A stretch of 64,000 bases of DNA, from NCBI GenBank assembly GCA_041651355.1, contig JBAZJK010000001.1:613883-677882 (forward strand). Direction: 5' to 3'. Each line of letters starts with the position of its first letter. The stretch's first letter is position 1. The stretch comes from Patescibacteria group bacterium (lineage in GTDB: Bacteria; Patescibacteriota; Patescibacteriia; Patescibacteriales; UBA12465). Position numbers and translations under genes: made by a program. Positions 1,924 through 10,131 of this stretch are shown here, in pieces. The notes under the pieces are model-generated. The model was not told the origin of the DNA. It searched no databases and was given only the letters and a program-made list of their open reading frames with translations.

Positions 1924-2805
1924 TTATTTGAAATCTTTCTTATTCAAATCCCGGATGAGCTTTTTCAGATCGCGGCCGATTTCTTTATCTTTCAAACCCA
2001 GCTTGATTGAAGCCTTGAGATAATTAAATTTGTTGCCAGTGTCCAGCCACTCCCCCTCTATGTTCTTTCCATAGATTGGCCTTTTCCCTTCCAACATCAA
2101 ATCGAAAGCGTCGGCCAAGCGAATTTCGCCTGACTTGCCAGAATCCATCTTGGCTAAGACTTTGATTACTTCCGGAGTAATGACATAGATACCAACGGCG
2201 GCTAGATTAGACGGGGCCTTATCTACCGGCGGCTTTTCCACGAAGCGCCTGATTTCGTAAACGCCGCCACCCAGGTTCAAGCCGTCGATGACGCCGAACT
2301 TATCAACTTCTTTCTTGCCAACCGCTGATAGGCCGACAACCGAATCGCCATATTTTTCATAAACATCCAAAACCTGCTTAACCGGAGAAATTTTTGCGTC
2401 ATACAAGGTATCGCCGAACATGATCAAGACCGGTTCATCATCCCGCACTAAGTGGGCGGCGCATTTGATGGCGTGCCCATCCCCTAAGGGAATCGCTTGG
2501 CGGACATAGGAAAATTTAGCCAAGCTATCTATTTCTTTCACCTTCTCGAGCAGATCCAATTTGTTCTTCTCTACCAAAGTCTTTTCTAGCTCGAATGAAT
2601 AATCAAAGTGATCCTCAATCGCCCTTTTCCCCCGGCCGGTCACGAAAATTATTTCCTCGATACCGGCAGCCACGGCTTGTTCCACCAGATATTGTATAAC
2701 CGGCTTATCAACTACCGGCAGCATTTCTTTAGGCTGAGCCTTAGTGGCTGGCAAGAAACGGGTGCCGAAACCGGCGACGGGTAAAATTGCTTTTTTAATT
2801 TTCAT
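1924..2805 (-). CDS. galU: UTP--glucose-1-phosphate uridylyltransferase
   Basis: N-terminus KAILPVAGFGTRFLPATKAQPKEMLPVVDKPVIQY plus the VEKP motif, which is the typical GalU signature. Confidence 0.9.
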   Translation of the reverse strand: MKIKKAILPVAGFGTRFLPATKAQPKEMLPVVDKPVIQYLVEQAVAAGIEEIIFVTGRGKRAIEDHFDYSFELEKTLVEKNKLDLLEKVKEIDSLAKFSYVRQAIPLGDGHAIKCAAHLVRDDEPVLIMFGDTLYDAKISPVKQVLDVYEKYGDSVVGLSAVGKKEVDKFGVIDGLNLGGGVYEIRRFVEKPPVDKAPSNLAAVGIYVITPEVIKVLAKMDSGKSGEIRLADAFDLMLEGKRPIYGKNIEGEWLDTGNKFNYLKASIKLGLKDKEIGRDLKKLIRDLNKKDFK

Positions 2806-2817
2806 AAAAATAAATTA

Positions 2818-3588
2818 TTATATTTTGCTTTTAAGTCCCCATTTCAAAAAGTATTTCCACCAGGAAAGAATGTGGAGCCAGGCCAGACGACTCTTGAAGA
2901 TTGCCTGGTACCAAGGAAGCTCCGCACTAGCCCGTTGATGATCATGAACAACGACCGCTTCTGGGTTATAAATGACTTTCAAGCCGCGACTTCTCACTTG
3001 ACGGGCTAAATCAGTGTCTTCAAAATACATGAAATAACGTTCATCAAATCTCAGGTCTCTTTTAAACATCAGACAAGACCCCATCAACCAATCAACTTCG
3101 CTGATCAGATCGTGATTAAAATCAAGCATCATGAAAGAATCCCGGACCTGTCGAAAATAATCCCCCAAGAAAGTGCGGCGCAAGATCGGGATCCAAAAAC
3201 CTGGAAAACGGGAACAAGAATATTGCAAAGAGCCGTCGGGATATACTAGTTTCGGACCGACTAAGCCGACTTCAGGGTGTTGCTTGATATAATTATACAA
3301 TATTTTTAGAGAATCGGCTTTAACTAAAGTATCAGGATTCATGATGGCGACATATTCCCCTTGCGATTGGCTAATACCCAAGTTGTTTCCGCCACCCATA
3401 CCCAGGTTGCGGGGACTTTTGATGACTTTTGCTAGCGCCTCTAAATCTCCCAGGTCGTCTCCGGAATTATTTTCTACAACAATAATTTCGGATTGGATGC
3501 CTGAAAAATCAGCCGCCCGCAAAGAGGCTAACAAACGCCGCAATTTATCCTGGCTTTTATAGTTCACAATTACGATCGATAGGTCCAT
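2818..3588 (-). CDS. Family 2 glycosyltransferase
   Basis: LSIVIVNYKSQDKL...IIVVENNSGDD...NLGMGGGNNLG...FMYFEDTDL is a GT2 (GT-A fold) motif series. Confidence 0.8.
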   Translation of the reverse strand: MDLSIVIVNYKSQDKLRRLLASLRAADFSGIQSEIIVVENNSGDDLGDLEALAKVIKSPRNLGMGGGNNLGISQSQGEYVAIMNPDTLVKADSLKILYNYIKQHPEVGLVGPKLVYPDGSLQYSCSRFPGFWIPILRRTFLGDYFRQVRDSFMMLDFNHDLISEVDWLMGSCLMFKRDLRFDERYFMYFEDTDLARQVRSRGLKVIYNPEAVVVHDHQRASAELPWYQAIFKSRLAWLHILSWWKYFLKWGLKSKI

Positions 3589-3589
3589 A

Positions 3590-4672
3590 CTAGATGATTA
3601 GTTTAACTAAACGCCAATACAGGCCCAATATCGGGTTGGCTATATAGCGCAGCAAAGGATTATTAATTTCTTGAAAATTAATCTGGCCGACGAAATCTTT
3701 AGCTATTTCTTTAAAGGGTACTACCTGGAATGATCTTATGTTCCGCCTCTCTTGAAAAATCAAACGATAGGTTCCCGGCCTGAGATAATAACGGTAAGCC
3801 TTGCTTAAATCTGGAAACCAGCCGCCGACCAAAGCATAAAAGATCATGCCAAGATTCATCAAGAAAAGAGGCAAGGACAATAAGATGATTAAAGCCCAAG
3901 GATAAAAAGAAAGTACAAAAAGGCAGCGATTCCTTTCCATATAATAAACCATCTTGATACTGCGCTTGAATTCATACTTATGATAAATGCGGGCAAGAGG
4001 CGCTAATACAATCTTATAACCGGCTAATCTAGCTTTTAATCCTAATTCCAAATCATCATGGTACATGTAGTACTCTTCATTATAGCCCTTGATCTTAGCG
4101 ATCAATTCTTTCTTCATCATCAAAGCGCAGCCGCTGGCATAGCCCTTAATCTCTGGATAAGGAGCGGATTCCAAAAATTGCCTAAAAGCTTCTTCTCTCT
4201 GGCCATAGCCGCGGGTAAAGCCGAAGCCCAAAAAATGAACCAGGTTACCGATGCTATTTAAAAGCGAAGCGGACTTATCCTGATTTGCCTCATGGAGAAG
4301 AATCTTAGCCTGGACAATCCCTATCTGGGAATCGCTGCCCAAGGCGGTGGCCATCTCAAACAGGCAATCCGGATCCAACTCCGTATCCATGTTAAGGATT
4401 GTCACATAATCGCAAGCGTCAGCGAGCGCCATCTTAATGCCTAAATTATTGGCGGCAGCATAGTTGCCATCCGGCCGAGGAAAAATATTAATGTCAGGAT
4501 AATTTTTTTTCAAAAAAGCTAAAGATTCCGGGCTAGAGGCGTTATCAACGATATAAACCCGATAAGAAAAATTTCCAAGCCTCTGTTTTTGCAGGCTGGC
4601 AAAACAAGCCTCTAAATACTTAGCGGCGTAATCTTTATAATTTATCAGGATGACTCCGATTAACTTAGACAT
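3590..4672 (-). CDS. Family 2 glycosyltransferase with C-terminal membrane segment
   Basis: IGVILINYKD...VYIVDNASS...YYMYHDDLELG GT2 motifs, followed by hydrophobic helices (FYPWALIILLSLPLFLMNLGMIFYALVGGW). Confidence 0.75.
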   Translation of the reverse strand: MSKLIGVILINYKDYAAKYLEACFASLQKQRLGNFSYRVYIVDNASSPESLAFLKKNYPDINIFPRPDGNYAAANNLGIKMALADACDYVTILNMDTELDPDCLFEMATALGSDSQIGIVQAKILLHEANQDKSASLLNSIGNLVHFLGFGFTRGYGQREEAFRQFLESAPYPEIKGYASGCALMMKKELIAKIKGYNEEYYMYHDDLELGLKARLAGYKIVLAPLARIYHKYEFKRSIKMVYYMERNRCLFVLSFYPWALIILLSLPLFLMNLGMIFYALVGGWFPDLSKAYRYYLRPGTYRLIFQERRNIRSFQVVPFKEIAKDFVGQINFQEINNPLLRYIANPILGLYWRLVKLII

Positions 4673-4686
4673 GTAAAAAAGTAAAT

Positions 4687-5556
4687 TTATTTAGCTAGGA
4701 TCTTTTTGCCAACAGTGTATAGTTTGGCTAGAAAGCTTCCTAGAGGCCACAGACATGACAAGACCCGATATTGCCAAGCTGGCTCCCATTTCTGGAAATA
4801 GGCAAGCATAGAAGATTGAAAATATGATTGCGTCCGTCCAATCCCGATTTGCTTGAAGCTTTGCCCGACCAGATCAAGAGCGGTTGCCTCAGGATTATAC
4901 CAAACCTCGCCCCCTAATTTATAAACCTGGCGGCAAAAATCAACCTCTTCAAACCAGACAAAATATCTTTCATCTAATAAAGGTTTGTCTTGGCCGCTGA
5001 TTGCCTGATAAGCTAGACGATCGATTAAGAAAAAAGAACCGCGGATAGAAGCGACTTTAGACGCCTGAGAATAATCAAAATTTTTCTGCAGATATTTAGA
5101 CAAGAGGCCTGGAAATAAGTGGGGTAGCTTCAAAATCACTAAAGCTTGATCCCAAAAAGTGGGAAAATTTCGAACTTGAGGTAAAACCTTCCCCTCCCTA
5201 TCTAAGAGACGGGCGCCGGCTACCACTGCGGACTTTTTGTTAGCCATAAAATCCAGCATCTTCTCCAAAGTATCGGTTTGCAAGCGCATATCCGGATTGA
5301 GCAAGAGGATAAAGCGCCCCTGAGCTTGTCTGATAGCAATATTGTTGGCCTTAGCAAAACCGAGGTTGGAATCGTTAGCGATCAGTTTAACCCCTGGGAA
5401 AAACTCTTTAAGCATTTCCTGGCTGCCGTCCTCAGAAGCATTATCGACGACAAAAACCTCCCAAGAAAATTTAACTTGGGAAGCATATAAAGCTTTCAGG
5501 TTTTCCCGTAACTGCTCTTTAACATTCCAAGAGACGATGACGACTGATATATCCAT
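4687..5556 (-). CDS. Family 2 glycosyltransferase
   Basis: ISVVIVSWNVKEQL...VFVVDNASEDGS...NLGFAKANN...FVWFEEVDF GT2 motifs. Confidence 0.8.
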   Translation of the reverse strand: MDISVVIVSWNVKEQLRENLKALYASQVKFSWEVFVVDNASEDGSQEMLKEFFPGVKLIANDSNLGFAKANNIAIRQAQGRFILLLNPDMRLQTDTLEKMLDFMANKKSAVVAGARLLDREGKVLPQVRNFPTFWDQALVILKLPHLFPGLLSKYLQKNFDYSQASKVASIRGSFFLIDRLAYQAISGQDKPLLDERYFVWFEEVDFCRQVYKLGGEVWYNPEATALDLVGQSFKQIGIGRTQSYFQSSMLAYFQKWEPAWQYRVLSCLWPLGSFLAKLYTVGKKILAK

Positions 5557-5972: not shown

Positions 5973-6467
5973 ATGAGCGAAAACAACGGATATAAACGCC
6001 CATCTTGGGATGAATATTTCATCCAGATAATGAATATGGTTGGCAGCCGCGGTACCTGTGATCGGGGCCGTAGCGGCTGTGTCATCACCAAAGATAAACG
6101 ATTGATTGCCTCTGGTTACGTCGGCTCCCCGATCGGCTGCCCTCACTGCGATGAAGAAGGGCATGAAATGCATACTGTCATCCATGAAGACGGTCATGAA
6201 AGCCGACATTGTATCCGGACCGCCCACGCCGAACAGAATGCTATCTGTGAGGCCGCTCGTATGGGCATCTCCCTGGAAGGCGCCACTTTGTATTGCAAGA
6301 TGACTCCCTGCTATACCTGTGCCAAGATGATAATCAATGCCGGCATCAAGCGGGTCGTCGCTGAACAAGACTATCATGCCGGAAATCGCAGTAAAGAAAT
6401 ATTTAAAGAGGCTGGCGTTGTCTATGAACTGCTCAATAGCACCGTCACTAAATATGAAGACCAATAA
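5973..6467 (+). CDS. dCMP deaminase (ComEB/Dcd-type cytidine/deoxycytidylate deaminase)
   Basis: Zinc motifs HAEQNAI and PCYTCAKMIINAGIKRVV. N-terminus PSWDEYFIQIMNMVGSRGTC is typical of dCMP deaminases. Confidence 0.85.
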   Translation: MSENNGYKRPSWDEYFIQIMNMVGSRGTCDRGRSGCVITKDKRLIASGYVGSPIGCPHCDEEGHEMHTVIHEDGHESRHCIRTAHAEQNAICEAARMGISLEGATLYCKMTPCYTCAKMIINAGIKRVVAEQDYHAGNRSKEIFKEAGVVYELLNSTVTKYEDQ

Positions 6468-6478
6468 AAACTAAAACT

Positions 6479-7768
6479 ATGGCGAACATTTTCATTTACG
6501 ACGAATTCAATCCCGAAGATAGCGCGATGATGCAAGCGCTCTATTCCCGTAGCCCTAAAAGCGTAACCGAGCATGTCGAGAAAGTAAAAAGCAGTGGCTC
6601 AGGCAAATTCATGGAAACCTTCTACGTCGGCTATGGCCACGCCTCGATTGCCGATTGCGGTAGTACAACCATGTTCATCGAGGGCGTCAGCATGCTAGCT
6701 GATAAAGCTATCCAGGATTGGCAACTATACAGCGGCCAAGAAACCAGCACGCGTTATATAGATATGTCCAAACAAGCGATCATCGACCCTATCGCTAGCC
6801 CGGAATCAGCGGCCATTTTAAAAAACTGGATGGACTTTTATATCAGCAATCAAGAAAAAATACAAGCCTATTTACAAACTAAATATCCGAAAAAAGCTGA
6901 TGAAGATGAAGCGGTTTATCTAAAAGCTATCAAAGCCCGCGGCTTCGACATCATGCGCGGCTTCCTGCCAGCCGGGATTACTACCCAGCTTAGTTGGCAC
7001 ACGAATCTTCGCCAGGCCTGGGACAAGTTAGCCCTGCTCTTGCACCACCCCCTGGAAGAAGTCCGGACGATTGCTCAAGAAATCTATCGTCAGCTAAAAG
7101 AGAAATACCCGCACAGCTTCTCTCACCCTTATAACGAAGACCAGGAAAAATATCGGGAAAACATGATGGCCAAATATAATTACTATCACTCAACTAATGC
7201 GACTGATTTCGCTTTCTTGACCACGATTAAAAATGAAGAGATCAGCGACTACCAAGATGCCTTTGACTCCCGTCCGCCAAAAACCAGCCTGCCTAATTTC
7301 TTAAATGACCTTGGTACTTGCACTTTTAAATTCTTGCTTGACTTCGGCTCTTTCCGAGACATCCAAAGACATCGCAGCGGCATCTGCCGCATGCCCCTTC
7401 TTAGCACCGAGCTCGGTTTCAACCCCTGGTATTTAGAGCAATTACCTGAAAATTTAAAGCTAGAGGCAGAAAAACTAATTGCTACCCAAAAAGAAGCTAT
7501 CGCTAAATTGGACGCCAGTCCAGAAATCAAGCAATATTACATCGGCATGGGCTTCAACGTCTTCTGTCGTAATACCTACCCCCTGGCGGCAACAGCTTAT
7601 GTCGTCGAACTTAGGTCGGGCAAGGCTGTCCATCCGACCTTACGCCGCGTCGCGCATAAGATGGCGGCGGCGATTAGCAGCTCCCTGCCTAATTTCAAAT
7701 TGTACTGCGATTTAGATCTGGATGACTGGGACATCCGTCGCGGCCTAGCGGATATCGTTAAAAAATAA
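6479..7768 (+). CDS. thyX: ThyX-like FAD-dependent thymidylate synthase, double-length (apparent tandem ThyX fold)
   Basis: The N-half has a ThyX-like block FIEGVSMLADKAIQDWQLYSGQETSTRY (the S-x-RY part of the signature, but no RHR). The C-half has FRDIQRHRSG and ELRSGKAVHPTLRRVAHKM. It lies between dCMP deaminase and tmk-dut. Confidence 0.6.
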   Translation: MANIFIYDEFNPEDSAMMQALYSRSPKSVTEHVEKVKSSGSGKFMETFYVGYGHASIADCGSTTMFIEGVSMLADKAIQDWQLYSGQETSTRYIDMSKQAIIDPIASPESAAILKNWMDFYISNQEKIQAYLQTKYPKKADEDEAVYLKAIKARGFDIMRGFLPAGITTQLSWHTNLRQAWDKLALLLHHPLEEVRTIAQEIYRQLKEKYPHSFSHPYNEDQEKYRENMMAKYNYYHSTNATDFAFLTTIKNEEISDYQDAFDSRPPKTSLPNFLNDLGTCTFKFLLDFGSFRDIQRHRSGICRMPLLSTELGFNPWYLEQLPENLKLEAEKLIATQKEAIAKLDASPEIKQYYIGMGFNVFCRNTYPLAATAYVVELRSGKAVHPTLRRVAHKMAAAISSSLPNFKLYCDLDLDDWDIRRGLADIVKK

Positions 7769-7770
7769 TT

Positions 7771-8328
7771 ATGTCCAAAATCATCCTCGGCTTCGCCGGC
7801 CCTCTGGCTAGTGGTAAAGAAGTCGCTAAAAAATATTTAGAGACCGAACATCAGGCTAGCGTCCATCGCTTCTCTGCGATGCTTCGCGATATCTTAAACC
7901 GTCTCTACTTACCGATTAGCCGGGAGAACATGCAAAACTTATCTTTTGATTTACGCCAACGCTTCGGCGAAGACACCTTGGCCCGCGTCATCGCTGAAGA
8001 CGTAAAAAATGACCCCCATGGCATAATCGTCATCGACGGTGTCAGACGCCTGGATGATATCGCCAGCCTAAAAGATGTCCCCGGCTTCTCTCTGATCAGT
8101 ATCGATGCCGATCCTAAAATCCGCTACGAACGGATGAAATGCCGTAATGAAAATAAAGGCGATGCCGATAAAAGCTATGATGATTTTTTGGCGGACGGCC
8201 AACGTGAAGCTGAACTGCAGATACCCGAAGTGATGGCCACCGCTAAATTCCATATTGATAACAACGGCGACCTGCCAAATCTATACCAGCAGATAGAAAC
8301 GATATTGGACGCCTTAGGTAAACAATAA
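7771..8328 (+). CDS. P-loop nucleotide/nucleoside-monophosphate kinase-like protein (UPF0200 / dephospho-CoA-kinase-like)
   Basis: Walker A GPLASGKE; IVIDGVRRLDDI...LISIDADPKIRYERMKCR pattern. The start overlaps the thyX-like stop region. Confidence 0.5.
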   Translation: MSKIILGFAGPLASGKEVAKKYLETEHQASVHRFSAMLRDILNRLYLPISRENMQNLSFDLRQRFGEDTLARVIAEDVKNDPHGIIVIDGVRRLDDIASLKDVPGFSLISIDADPKIRYERMKCRNENKGDADKSYDDFLADGQREAELQIPEVMATAKFHIDNNGDLPNLYQQIETILDALGKQ

Positions 8329-8385: not shown

Positions 8386-9684
8386 ATGATCACTCGCTCA
8401 GGGAAATTCATCGTCATTGACGGCACGGATGGCTCCGGCAAAACCACCCAACTCAACCTCTTGGCTACAAAACTGAAAGATGAAGGCTACGGCGTAGCCA
8501 TCGCTGATTTCCCTCAATACAATACCAAATCAGCTGGGATGGTCGAAGAATATTTATCTGGAAAATACGGCGGCGCCGGCGAGGTTGATCCCTATCAAGC
8601 CTCCATCTTCTACGCGGTCGACCGCTATGATGCTAGCTTTAAAATCAAAGAGTGGCTAAAGGAAGGAAAAATAGTCTTAGCTAACCGCTATGTCAGCTCC
8701 AACCTTGGGCACCAAGGTGGCAAATTTGACAACCCTTTAGAAAGGAAGATTTTCTTTAACTGGCTATATGATCTGGAATACCGCCTATTTTCCGTCCCTA
8801 AACCCGATTTATCCCTAATCCTTCACGTCGAAGCTGATATCGCCCAACAGCTAGCCGCTAAAAGACAGCGGGAAGACTGGACGGGAAAAACCAAAGACAT
8901 ACATGAGAACGATCTCAACCATCTCAAAAGAGCGGAACAGGTGTATCTAGAAATCGCTCGAACTTTCCCCGACTTTAAACTGATAAAATGTACGAACCAG
9001 GGAAAAATATTACCGCCAGAAGAAATAAACTATTTAATCTGGATATACATTAAGAGGATTATAAACATCGGAGAACCAGCCAAGACTAAAGGTTTGCAGG
9101 CAATTTCTGACATCATCACCAAGAACCACCGCCTAAGTGAAAAATTTCCTGAGTTGAGCGCTCAGTCCTATCGCGCTCCGGAAAACGAAGATATCAAAAT
9201 AAAAAAACTCAACGATTGGCTGAATCCTGCCTCAGAAACAGAAGCACCGATAGAGATAAGCCTAAAGGCTGAAGAAAAAACAGAAAAAACCGAGGTAAAA
9301 GCTCATAAGAGAAGTTGCAAAATTAGGGTGCAAAAAATACACCCCAGTGCCCAGCTTCCCAGCAAAGAGCATCATCGCAATGCTGGCTTCGACCTTTATT
9401 CGCATGATTATTATTCAATTCCTCCATATCAGCAGGCCCTGATTTCCACCGGCTTGAAGATAAAGATACCCCATGGCCATGTCGGCCTCATCTGGGATAA
9501 GAGTGGCCTGGCGAACTTCGGTTTCAAGGTCATGGGCGGCGTCATCGATGCTAACTACCGGGAAGAAATCCGAGTGATATTTAAAAACCTGAGTGAAGAT
9601 ATATATCATATCGTCCCTGGGCAGAAGATTGCCCAGCTCTTAGTCCAGCCGATTGCTGATCCGGAAATGAGTGAAGACCTATAA
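8386..9684 (+). CDS. tmk: Thymidylate kinase - dUTPase fusion protein
   Basis: N-terminus GKFIVIDGTDGSGKTTQ...ADFPQY...DRY (Tmk). There is a K/E-rich linker of about 90 aa. The C-terminus carries dUTPase motifs NAGFDLYS, KSGLA, GGVIDANYREEI and GQKIAQLLV. Confidence 0.85.
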   Translation: MITRSGKFIVIDGTDGSGKTTQLNLLATKLKDEGYGVAIADFPQYNTKSAGMVEEYLSGKYGGAGEVDPYQASIFYAVDRYDASFKIKEWLKEGKIVLANRYVSSNLGHQGGKFDNPLERKIFFNWLYDLEYRLFSVPKPDLSLILHVEADIAQQLAAKRQREDWTGKTKDIHENDLNHLKRAEQVYLEIARTFPDFKLIKCTNQGKILPPEEINYLIWIYIKRIINIGEPAKTKGLQAISDIITKNHRLSEKFPELSAQSYRAPENEDIKIKKLNDWLNPASETEAPIEISLKAEEKTEKTEVKAHKRSCKIRVQKIHPSAQLPSKEHHRNAGFDLYSHDYYSIPPYQQALISTGLKIKIPHGHVGLIWDKSGLANFGFKVMGGVIDANYREEIRVIFKNLSEDIYHIVPGQKIAQLLVQPIADPEMSEDL

Positions 9685-9750: not shown

Positions 9751-10131
9751 ATGTGGCCATTTTCTCGAACCGCACCTGAAGCCGAAATGTATCCTTTCCC
9801 GAAAAACAATATTTTAAACACCGAGAACAAAGAACAAGACTTAAGCCAGGAAGAGCAAGAAATATACCAAGGATTAATCACCCGGCTAAAGACAAAAAAT
9901 CTGCCTGACGATCAACAGGAAATTAGCCCGGAAGATAAAGAAAAGATAGATATGGGCGGACATGCCATCACCTATCAAACAGATGGAATCAGCCTGGGAA
10001 TACCTAGTATCCACTTGGCTTATGCTTTTCATGAAATCGACCAAGCTTTCCCTGAAAAGCCCTGGCAATGGAAAAGAGATTTGGCTGGCAAATTAGCTAG
10101 CTTGCTAAAAACTAAACACCGACAAAACTAA
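9751..10131 (+). CDS. Hypothetical protein
   Basis: ORF only. Its stop overlaps the gatB ATG (TAATG), which suggests translational coupling. No motif recognised. Confidence 0.4.
   Translation: MWPFSRTAPEAEMYPFPKNNILNTENKEQDLSQEEQEIYQGLITRLKTKNLPDDQQEISPEDKEKIDMGGHAITYQTDGISLGIPSIHLAYAFHEIDQAFPEKPWQWKRDLAGKLASLLKTKHRQN

Follow-up and report, generated by a model that had tools for sequence, protein, structure and literature searches.

Canonical flavin-dependent thymidylate synthases (ThyX) are understood as assemblies of four identical subunits with four active sites, each lined by three subunits. In T. maritima numbering, one subunit contributes the loop bearing Glu86, Ser88, Arg90 and Tyr91, another the Gln75 helix and Arg174, and yet another His53. 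In the PBCV-1 enzyme the uracil pocket combines Ser88/Gln89 of monomer B with Gln75 and Arg182 (Arg174 in T. maritima) of monomer A, and deoxyuridine monophosphate (dUMP) is hydrogen-bonded by Arg78, Arg80, Ser88 and Arg90 (PMC3498832). His53, which comes from 'monomer-3', hydrogen-bonds the loop residue Tyr91 and stacks on flavin/folate, and Arg78 stabilizes the reduced flavin, FADH- (PMC11940539). Arg174 activates dUMP; Ser88, Arg90 and Tyr91 aid methylene transfer (PMC8316439). Our full-text literature searches returned a single passing mention of a duplicated ThyX, the domain-duplicated and uncharacterised enzyme of Chloroflexi (Valas & Bourne 2009; PMC3224940), and no description of a split motif or of what follows from it for site number. 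Here we analyze a 'long', two-domain ThyX gene in a 64,000-nucleotide stretch of a Patescibacteria genome (contig JBAZJK010000001.1, positions 613,883 to 677,882; hereafter the window; G+C content 42.6%). The two halves of the protein retain complementary sets of ThyX active-site residues, a division which, together with what it implies for site number, is essentially undescribed, although domain-duplicated ThyX as such was already noted in 2009.

The gene occupies positions 6479..7768 of the plus strand, on which all features of the protein described below also lie, and is an uninterrupted open reading frame with an ATG start, encoding 429 amino acids followed by a stop codon. It divides into an N-domain (residues 1-215, 6479..7123), a linker (residues 216-243, 7124..7207) and a C-domain with a strongly diverged ThyX fold (residues 244-429, 7208..7765). 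The linker is variable in sequence and length, with one helix predicted in it (residues 220-233 in the AlphaFold2 model), and carries large insertions in phage and Acidobacteria-type homologues. Using the T. maritima ThyX sequence (identical to PDB 1KQ4) as reference, we mapped the residues that contact flavin adenine dinucleotide (FAD) or dUMP onto both domains of 135 diverse relatives from the Candidate Phyla Radiation (CPR).

In the N-domain, His53 corresponds to H54 (6638..6640), a histidine in 132/135 CPR-type and 120/120 Acidobacteria-type proteins, and the loop GQETSTRY (residues 86-93, 6734..6757) provides E88 for Glu86 (131/135), S90 for Ser88 (135/135), R92 for Arg90 (135/135) and Y93 for Tyr91 (129/135). 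The motif DIMR (6947..6958), placed by alignment to ThyX, holds R160 in the position of Arg147 (127/135) and D157 in that of Glu144 (135/135), and R178 stands for Arg165 (113/135). Of these positions, the following are lost from the C-domain: His53 is replaced by Pro272, Glu86 by a hydrophobic residue (M305), Ser88 likewise by a hydrophobic residue, Arg90 by Thr/Ser, Tyr91 by variable residues and Arg147 by Gln352. Conversely, RDIQRHR in the C-domain (residues 293-299, 7355..7375) is in register with the canonical RHR motif and supplies R293 for Arg74, R297 for Arg78 and R299 for Arg80 (each 135/135), and H298 for His79 (120/135). R379, located within ELRSGKAVHPTLR (residues 377-389, 7607..7645) and assigned from the profile register, is the equivalent of Arg174 (135/135); H385 and R389 of this segment are family-invariant, H385 being found in 135/135 CPR-type and 120/120 Acidobacteria-type sequences. 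In the N-domain these positions hold Ala/Asp (Arg74), Gln/Glu (Arg78), Asp (His79), a variable residue (Arg80) and Leu187 (Arg174). The place of the canonical RHR is taken by QDW (residues 79-81, 6713..6721), directly preceded by FIEGVSMLADKAI (residues 66-78), and RHR occurs in none of the N-domains of 135 + 120 relatives.

A contiguous RHRxxSxxxxSxR(Y) motif is consequently absent from either domain throughout the family, the N-domain reading QDW....ETSTRY and the C-domain RHR without S.RY. Summed over both domains, by contrast with either one alone, the set of His53, Arg74, Arg78, Arg80, Glu86, Ser88, Arg90, Tyr91, Arg147 and Arg174 is complete, with 94-100% conservation. An earlier note, made from the letters of the window, had drawn attention to the 429-residue frame, to QDW replacing RHR in the N-half, to GQETSTRY and to FRDIQRHRSG (residues 292-301) in a C-half lacking SxRY downstream; all of these strings were located, and its proposal of two ThyX-like halves with complementary active-site residues, together forming a covalent pseudo-dimer, is supported by several lines of evidence for the identity of the C-half and by the family-wide retention of the split.

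The same division recurs in a second clade of ∼520-amino acid, Acidobacteria-type proteins, in which every kept residue is present in 120/120 sequences, and in three phage homologues (from Vibrio, Tunturiibacter and Microcystis phages). Positions lost from one domain are never restored there in the 135 + 120 relatives or the three phage proteins. Because CPR-type, Acidobacteria-type and phage members share it, the complementary split is an old and defining property of a very large family and no peculiarity of this gene.

We next consider the identity of the C-half, which is a ThyX domain too diverged for Pfam to recognize in the query itself. Pfam Thy1 (PF02511) matches the full protein with 67.9 bits (E 1.3e-18; gathering score 24.8) over residues 18-212, which places it in the Thy1 family. 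The earlier note had suggested looking for two Thy1 hits; the query yields only this one, but orthologous C-halves do match Thy1, and the lack of a second match is best read as a limit of sensitivity, not as absence of a domain. When 40 orthologous C-halves were scanned one by one, 18 matched Thy1 (best E 4.5e-8) and nothing else was recurrent. In a further scan of ten sequences, nine of them C-halves and the tenth a full-length phage protein, the gathering score was exceeded by three of the C-halves (33.5, 25.5 and 25.0 bits), and the phage protein, the 518-amino acid Tunturiibacter phage Tunturi_5 homologue, gave two Thy1 stretches (107 bits). The long matches place the C-half on profile positions 51-191, with its RHR on the RHR of the profile.

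Profile-profile comparison points the same way. Aligned with hhalign, a C-domain profile of 249 long ThyX proteins and a canonical one based on 118 ThyX sequences of Thermotogota share 174 collinear columns (E 0.0018) in which RHR falls on RHR and R379 on R174; DFGSFRDIQRHR is paired with PIFVARQWFRHR, QY..PMG with AR.VLPL and ELRS with NLRA. The N-domain reaches E 1.9e-6 against the same profile. Sequence searches were less sensitive: phmmer with the query against PDB sequences gave weak ThyX matches confined to residues 49-215, hmmsearch with a profile of 40 diverse C-halves against PDB sequences gave no ThyX match, and phmmer with T. maritima ThyX against C-halves gave marginal matches only, though in the expected register. 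No alignment was obtained by hhalign between the C-half profile and the single T. maritima sequence, for which the canonical profile was needed. A tblastn search of the window with T. maritima ThyX found nothing significant, the pairwise similarity being too low for detection, and one with an E. coli ThyA sequence likewise found nothing significant in the window, a result that says nothing about the genome beyond it.

The AlphaFold2 model of the full-length protein (predicted local distance difference test, pLDDT, 83.3; predicted template modeling score, pTM, 0.84) repeats the order of strands and helices in both halves. Foldseek searches of the PDB with the whole model returned ThyX chains only (best E 8e-6; template modeling (TM) score ∼0.55 normalized to the target); the best TM score normalized to the query is 0.34, and no solved structure spans both halves. 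The 50 best PDB matches of the isolated C-half model were all ThyX (50/50, E 0.01-0.13). Models, C-half scans and hhalign thus agree on two ThyX-homologous domains in one polypeptide. Residues 296-314, which comprise His298-Arg299 and the next loop and correspond to the lost active-site loop, have a pLDDT of 78-97 in the full-length model and 36-42 in the isolated C-half; because this segment is confident only in the full-length model, the models hint that the N- and C-domains pack intimately.

The split follows the published subunit origins of the active-site residues in tetrameric ThyX. The N-domain would be the donor of the loop (E88, S90, R92, Y93), of R160 (Arg147) and of H54 (His53), and the C-domain the donor of the helix (R293, R297-H298-R299) and of the Arg174 equivalent R379, so that the two domains of one chain would form an obligate hetero-pair converting dUMP to deoxythymidine monophosphate (dTMP). 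At least two chains would have to associate, because the loop and His53 are donated by different subunits and both are found only in the N-domain. The functional minimum would be a homodimer, N1-C1 / N2-C2, with two complete sites, two degenerate sites and probably two FAD molecules. We infer this assembly and its two-site stoichiometry from the residue split and the literature; the FAD-dependent conversion of dUMP to dTMP is suggested by gene context and by phyla that appear to rely on ThyX. Taken as a whole, a flavin-dependent thymidylate synthase with two complementary ThyX domains, associating as a tetramer-like homodimer with two composite sites, is in our judgement the likely explanation. 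We are surer of two complementary ThyX domains and thymidylate synthase activity than of the whole, and less sure of a homodimer with exactly two sites.

Several observations weigh against this explanation or qualify it. The protein scores 32.5 bits against the ThyX equivalog model TIGR02170 (NCBIfam), below its cut-off of 87.9, and the query C-half alone matches no Pfam family significantly. Profile-profile support for the C-domain is modest (E 0.0018, probability 15%), and the model of the C-half alone is of middling quality (pLDDT 67; TM 0.3-0.45 to ThyX). That Arg74, Arg78 and Arg80 (and His79) share a subunit with Gln75 is deduced from their common helix and not from a structure. Moreover, Asp294 stands in the place of Gln75, and D288, D294, W317-Y318, Y374, E377, H385, R389 and R421 are invariant in the C-domain without a canonical counterpart; because such residues are many, the C-domain may do more than donate five residues.

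One such role would be a repurposing of the degenerate sites for a reductant (NAD(P)H or other), for folate or for an allosteric nucleotide, an elaboration that we regard as unlikely. Candidate lining residues, all invariant and non-canonical, are those just listed together with P306, Q352-Y353 and the R421-G422 tail. If the degenerate sites were repurposed, the enzyme could have separated half-reactions or built-in regulation, which are impossible in a homotetrameric ThyX. The C-terminal tail, DDWDIRRGLADI (residues 415-426, 7721..7756), is of low confidence in the model; its near-invariant R421-G422 (R421 in 134/135 and 120/120 sequences) is kept in both long-ThyX clades, has no counterpart in canonical ThyX, and the tail may extend into one of the sites, whether active or degenerate.

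Alternatively, the N-domain could be the sole catalytic module and the C-domain a degenerate structural or regulatory appendage serving solubility, oligomerisation or partner binding. Such a role would be in keeping with Pfam recognizing only the N-half in the query, with the much greater divergence of the C-half (hhalign E 0.0018 vs 1.9e-6) and with the extra, non-catalytic C-terminal domains known in ThyX, for example in the Thermus Thy1 structure 6j61. However, Arg74, Arg78, His79, Arg80 and Arg174 are gone from the N-domain in 255/255 relatives and kept at homologous positions of the C-domain, and an enzyme relying on the N-domain alone would lack essential dUMP and flavin groups (Arg78/80 for dUMP, Arg78 for FADH-, Arg174 for activation). 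We therefore think an appendage very unlikely and retain the reading in which both domains contribute to catalysis.

The gene neighborhood bears on the reaction catalyzed. A ComEB-like dCMP deaminase (5973..6467, plus strand; Pfam dCMP_cyt_deam_1 E 7e-23; TIGR02571 122 bits) ends 11 nt upstream of the long ThyX gene, and a P-loop kinase-like protein of 185 amino acids (7771..8328, plus strand; Pfam AAA_18; PRK08356 79 bits) begins 2 nt downstream, followed by a 432-residue fusion of thymidylate kinase (Tmk) and dUTPase (8386..9684, plus strand; Thymidylate_kin E 5.7e-25; dUTPase E 1.3e-24; also matched in NCBIfam). The four genes, spaced 2-57 nt apart, form one plus-strand block that begins after an AT-rich divergent intergenic region. 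dCMP deaminase and dUTPase yield dUMP, and Tmk uses dTMP. Among 80 related CPR loci, of which 75 have >700 nt of upstream and 67 >2 kb of downstream flank, 67 have the deaminase upstream, 60 the P-loop protein downstream, 59 Tmk and 46 dUTPase; with 62-75% identity between these loci and the query, the recurrence in part reflects shared ancestry. Independent support for the gene context comes from the Tunturi_5 phage, because dCMP deaminase and dUTPase also lie near its long ThyX, in the cluster dUTPase - helicase - dCMP deaminase - long ThyX (518 amino acids; locus L082, 436-4524). The gene is most likely the thymidylate synthase gene of a Patescibacteria operon for dTTP synthesis, and it is already annotated as such.

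The other genes of the region add some detail. In the Tmk-dUTPase fusion, Tmk spans residues 5-205 and dUTPase residues 308-429, joined by a linker of ∼100 residues without family match, and fusion or adjacency of the two recurs in related CPR loci. The P-loop protein matches best the 'hypothetical protein' model PRK08356, below its cut-off, and, within the anti-phage dCTP deaminase model NF041025, the part that resembles a kinase; possibly it phosphorylates a dNMP in this pathway. A 126-amino acid reading frame between tmk-dut and gatB (9751..10131, plus strand) has no Pfam or NCBIfam match and overlaps the gatB start codon by 1 nt. On the minus strand, a run of genes divergent from the dTTP operon (1924-5556) looks by eye like a nucleotidyltransferase and three family-2 glycosyltransferases.

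It is also conceivable that the protein is a ThyX-fold flavoenzyme catalyzing another reaction, such as the methylation or hydroxymethylation of another pyrimidine nucleotide. ThyX-like enzymes act on UMP or dCMP in nucleoside-antibiotic or phage hypermodification pathways, and a score under the TIGR02170 cut-off, the many family-specific invariant residues, Asp294 in place of Gln75 and the occurrence of the family in jumbo phages, which often modify DNA, would all fit such a function. Yet the composite set keeps all the residues for which hydrogen bonding to dUMP or its activation has been reported, and the gene lies between makers of dUMP (dCMP deaminase, dUTPase) and a user of dTMP (Tmk), in CPR genomes as well as an unrelated phage. 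Whole phyla, moreover, appear to have long ThyX as their only thymidylate synthase: a census table based on COGs lists ThyX in 6/6 Acidobacteria and 9/9 Chloroflexi genomes, and ThyA in none and two of them, respectively (PMC5954106). Because these phyla have few or no ThyA and their ThyX is of the long type (for Chloroflexi as reported), the long form must be able to serve as thymidylate synthase in some phyla at least. The earlier note had allowed for a family already characterised with a different activity, for which we found no support. We consider a different reaction very unlikely and favor thymidylate synthesis by the two complementary domains.

Long ThyX appears from these searches to be common to thousands of proteins across several bacterial phyla and large phages. 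A collection clustered at 90% yielded more than 4,448 scored homologues, and the best 120 are nearly all 429-430 amino acids long and, where named, are the 'FAD-dependent thymidylate synthase' of Patescibacteria, Falkowbacteria or Saccharimonadales. With HMMER, a 50%-clustered library gave 514 representatives at E<1e-30, almost all of 420-500 amino acids. A species-level genome collection contained at least 590 loci, the best 80 of which are all from CPR genomes. Since the named homologues and these 80 loci come from CPR groups, the host genome would be that of a Patescibacteria member close to Falkowbacteria. The ∼520-amino acid clade, Terriglobales/Acidobacteriia where named, is ∼28% identical to the query, and the two-domain, full-length phage homologues (461-518 amino acids) show 23-32% identity at 78-98% coverage. 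An artefactual origin of the double length, by chimeric assembly or by frameshift fusion of two adjacent thyX paralogues, has nothing but the unusual length in its favor and can practically be dismissed, given the uninterrupted reading frame and thousands of independent homologues that agree in length and domain order, some of them from complete phage genomes.

The loci also offer observations on annotation. Many third-party metagenome-assembled genomes ('binchicken' / 'SRP..._co'; loci L002, L011, L023, L026, L040 and others) are labeled 'uncultured Gammaproteobacteria' or 'Bdellovibrionales', and their loci are 63-74% identical to the query Patescibacteria operon, with the same gene order; judged by these sequences, the taxonomic labels look wrong. 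In Vibrio phage vB_VmeM-Yong MS32 (L081, 2938-4323) and Microcystis phage Mvi-JY20 (L083, 1917-3335), the two-domain ThyX is labeled 'hypothetical protein'. The closest cellular relatives of the Tunturi_5 protein are the ∼520-amino acid ThyX proteins of Terriglobales/Acidobacteriia, its host lineage, which suggests that the phage gene may have been acquired from the host.

The two domains may have arisen by internal tandem duplication, as the earlier note proposed, or by fusion of two already diverged paralogues. When profiles of the N- and C-halves were built from close homologues only (effective number of sequences, Neff, 1.6), hhalign aligned just the last helix (E 0.044). With diverse members the halves do align (E 0.0057-0.003), but with the first part out of register, and at a significance too weak to prove an internal duplication. 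The duplicated late helix seen by the earlier note is present in both halves (HHPLEEVRTIAQEI in the N-half, VHPTLRRVAHKM in the C-half), but its pairing of 'NLRQAW' with 'ELRSGK' is off register: by alignment, N176/R178 of the N-half equal N163/R165 of T. maritima, L378/R379 of the C-half equal L173/R174, and the N-half counterpart of R379 is L187. Residue 188 (7040-7042), next to the position aligned with canonical Arg174, is Leu in the query and Arg in 99/121 aligned sequences (the query and its 120 closest relatives); it varies across the wider family and is probably not catalytic.

Many bacteria, pathogens among them, have no thymidylate synthase other than ThyX, which is also a drug target. 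How it works and where its substrates and reductant bind are still debated, partly because the four sites of the homotetramer are identical, and a natural, role-separated ThyX would provide a system for assigning residues to subunit roles and for testing half-of-sites behavior. Behind a very large proportion of the proteins annotated 'FAD-dependent thymidylate synthase' there would be a distinct architecture outside the equivalog model, spanning Patescibacteria, Acidobacteria-type soil bacteria, probably Chloroflexi, and large phages. The family would be a model example of how, in an oligomeric enzyme, duplicated domains go on to lose complementary functions. The gene itself would be an ordinary housekeeping enzyme; its architecture points to a distinct, widespread ThyX variant, implying half the active sites.

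Among known systems, canonical homotetrameric ThyX/FDTS (T. maritima TM0449, PDB 1KQ4/1O26; M. tuberculosis, 2AF6; PBCV-1, 2CFA) has the same fold as both halves, the same flavin- and dUMP-contact set as the two domains summed and the same metabolic context. Long ThyX differs from it in having two non-identical domains per chain, each of which alone is predicted to be catalytically incomplete, and in two predicted complete sites per tetramer-like particle, where the canonical enzyme has four. The phage proteins (Vibrio phages vB_VmeM-Yong and BONAISHI, Tunturi_5, and Microcystis phages Ma-LMM01 and Mvi-JY20) have larger linkers and insertions than the query; phage models from BFVD superpose on the whole query model with TM scores of 0.84 (A0A6B7EUB9) and 0.69. 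Chlamydia trachomatis ThyX (CT632), at ∼529 amino acids roughly double the canonical length, may belong to the same family. In 2005, in the J Biol Chem, Griffin and co-workers reportedly characterised it as a flavin-dependent thymidylate synthase. Should the chlamydial enzyme be split in the same way, this class already has a proven activity, and what is new is its structural interpretation and how widely the family occurs. Leduc and co-workers reportedly found in 2004 that mixing differently inactivated ThyX subunits restores activity, with one site completed by residues of different subunits. Those heteromers are a laboratory construct of subunits of identical fold carrying point mutations, whereas long ThyX resembles a natural counterpart in which the pairing is covalent. 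The domain-duplicated ThyX of Chloroflexi, which we can compare by its description only, very probably has the same architecture; the published remark (PMC3224940) is silent on the distribution of residues, and the long-ThyX family is far broader, taking in Patescibacteria, Acidobacteria-type bacteria and large phages.

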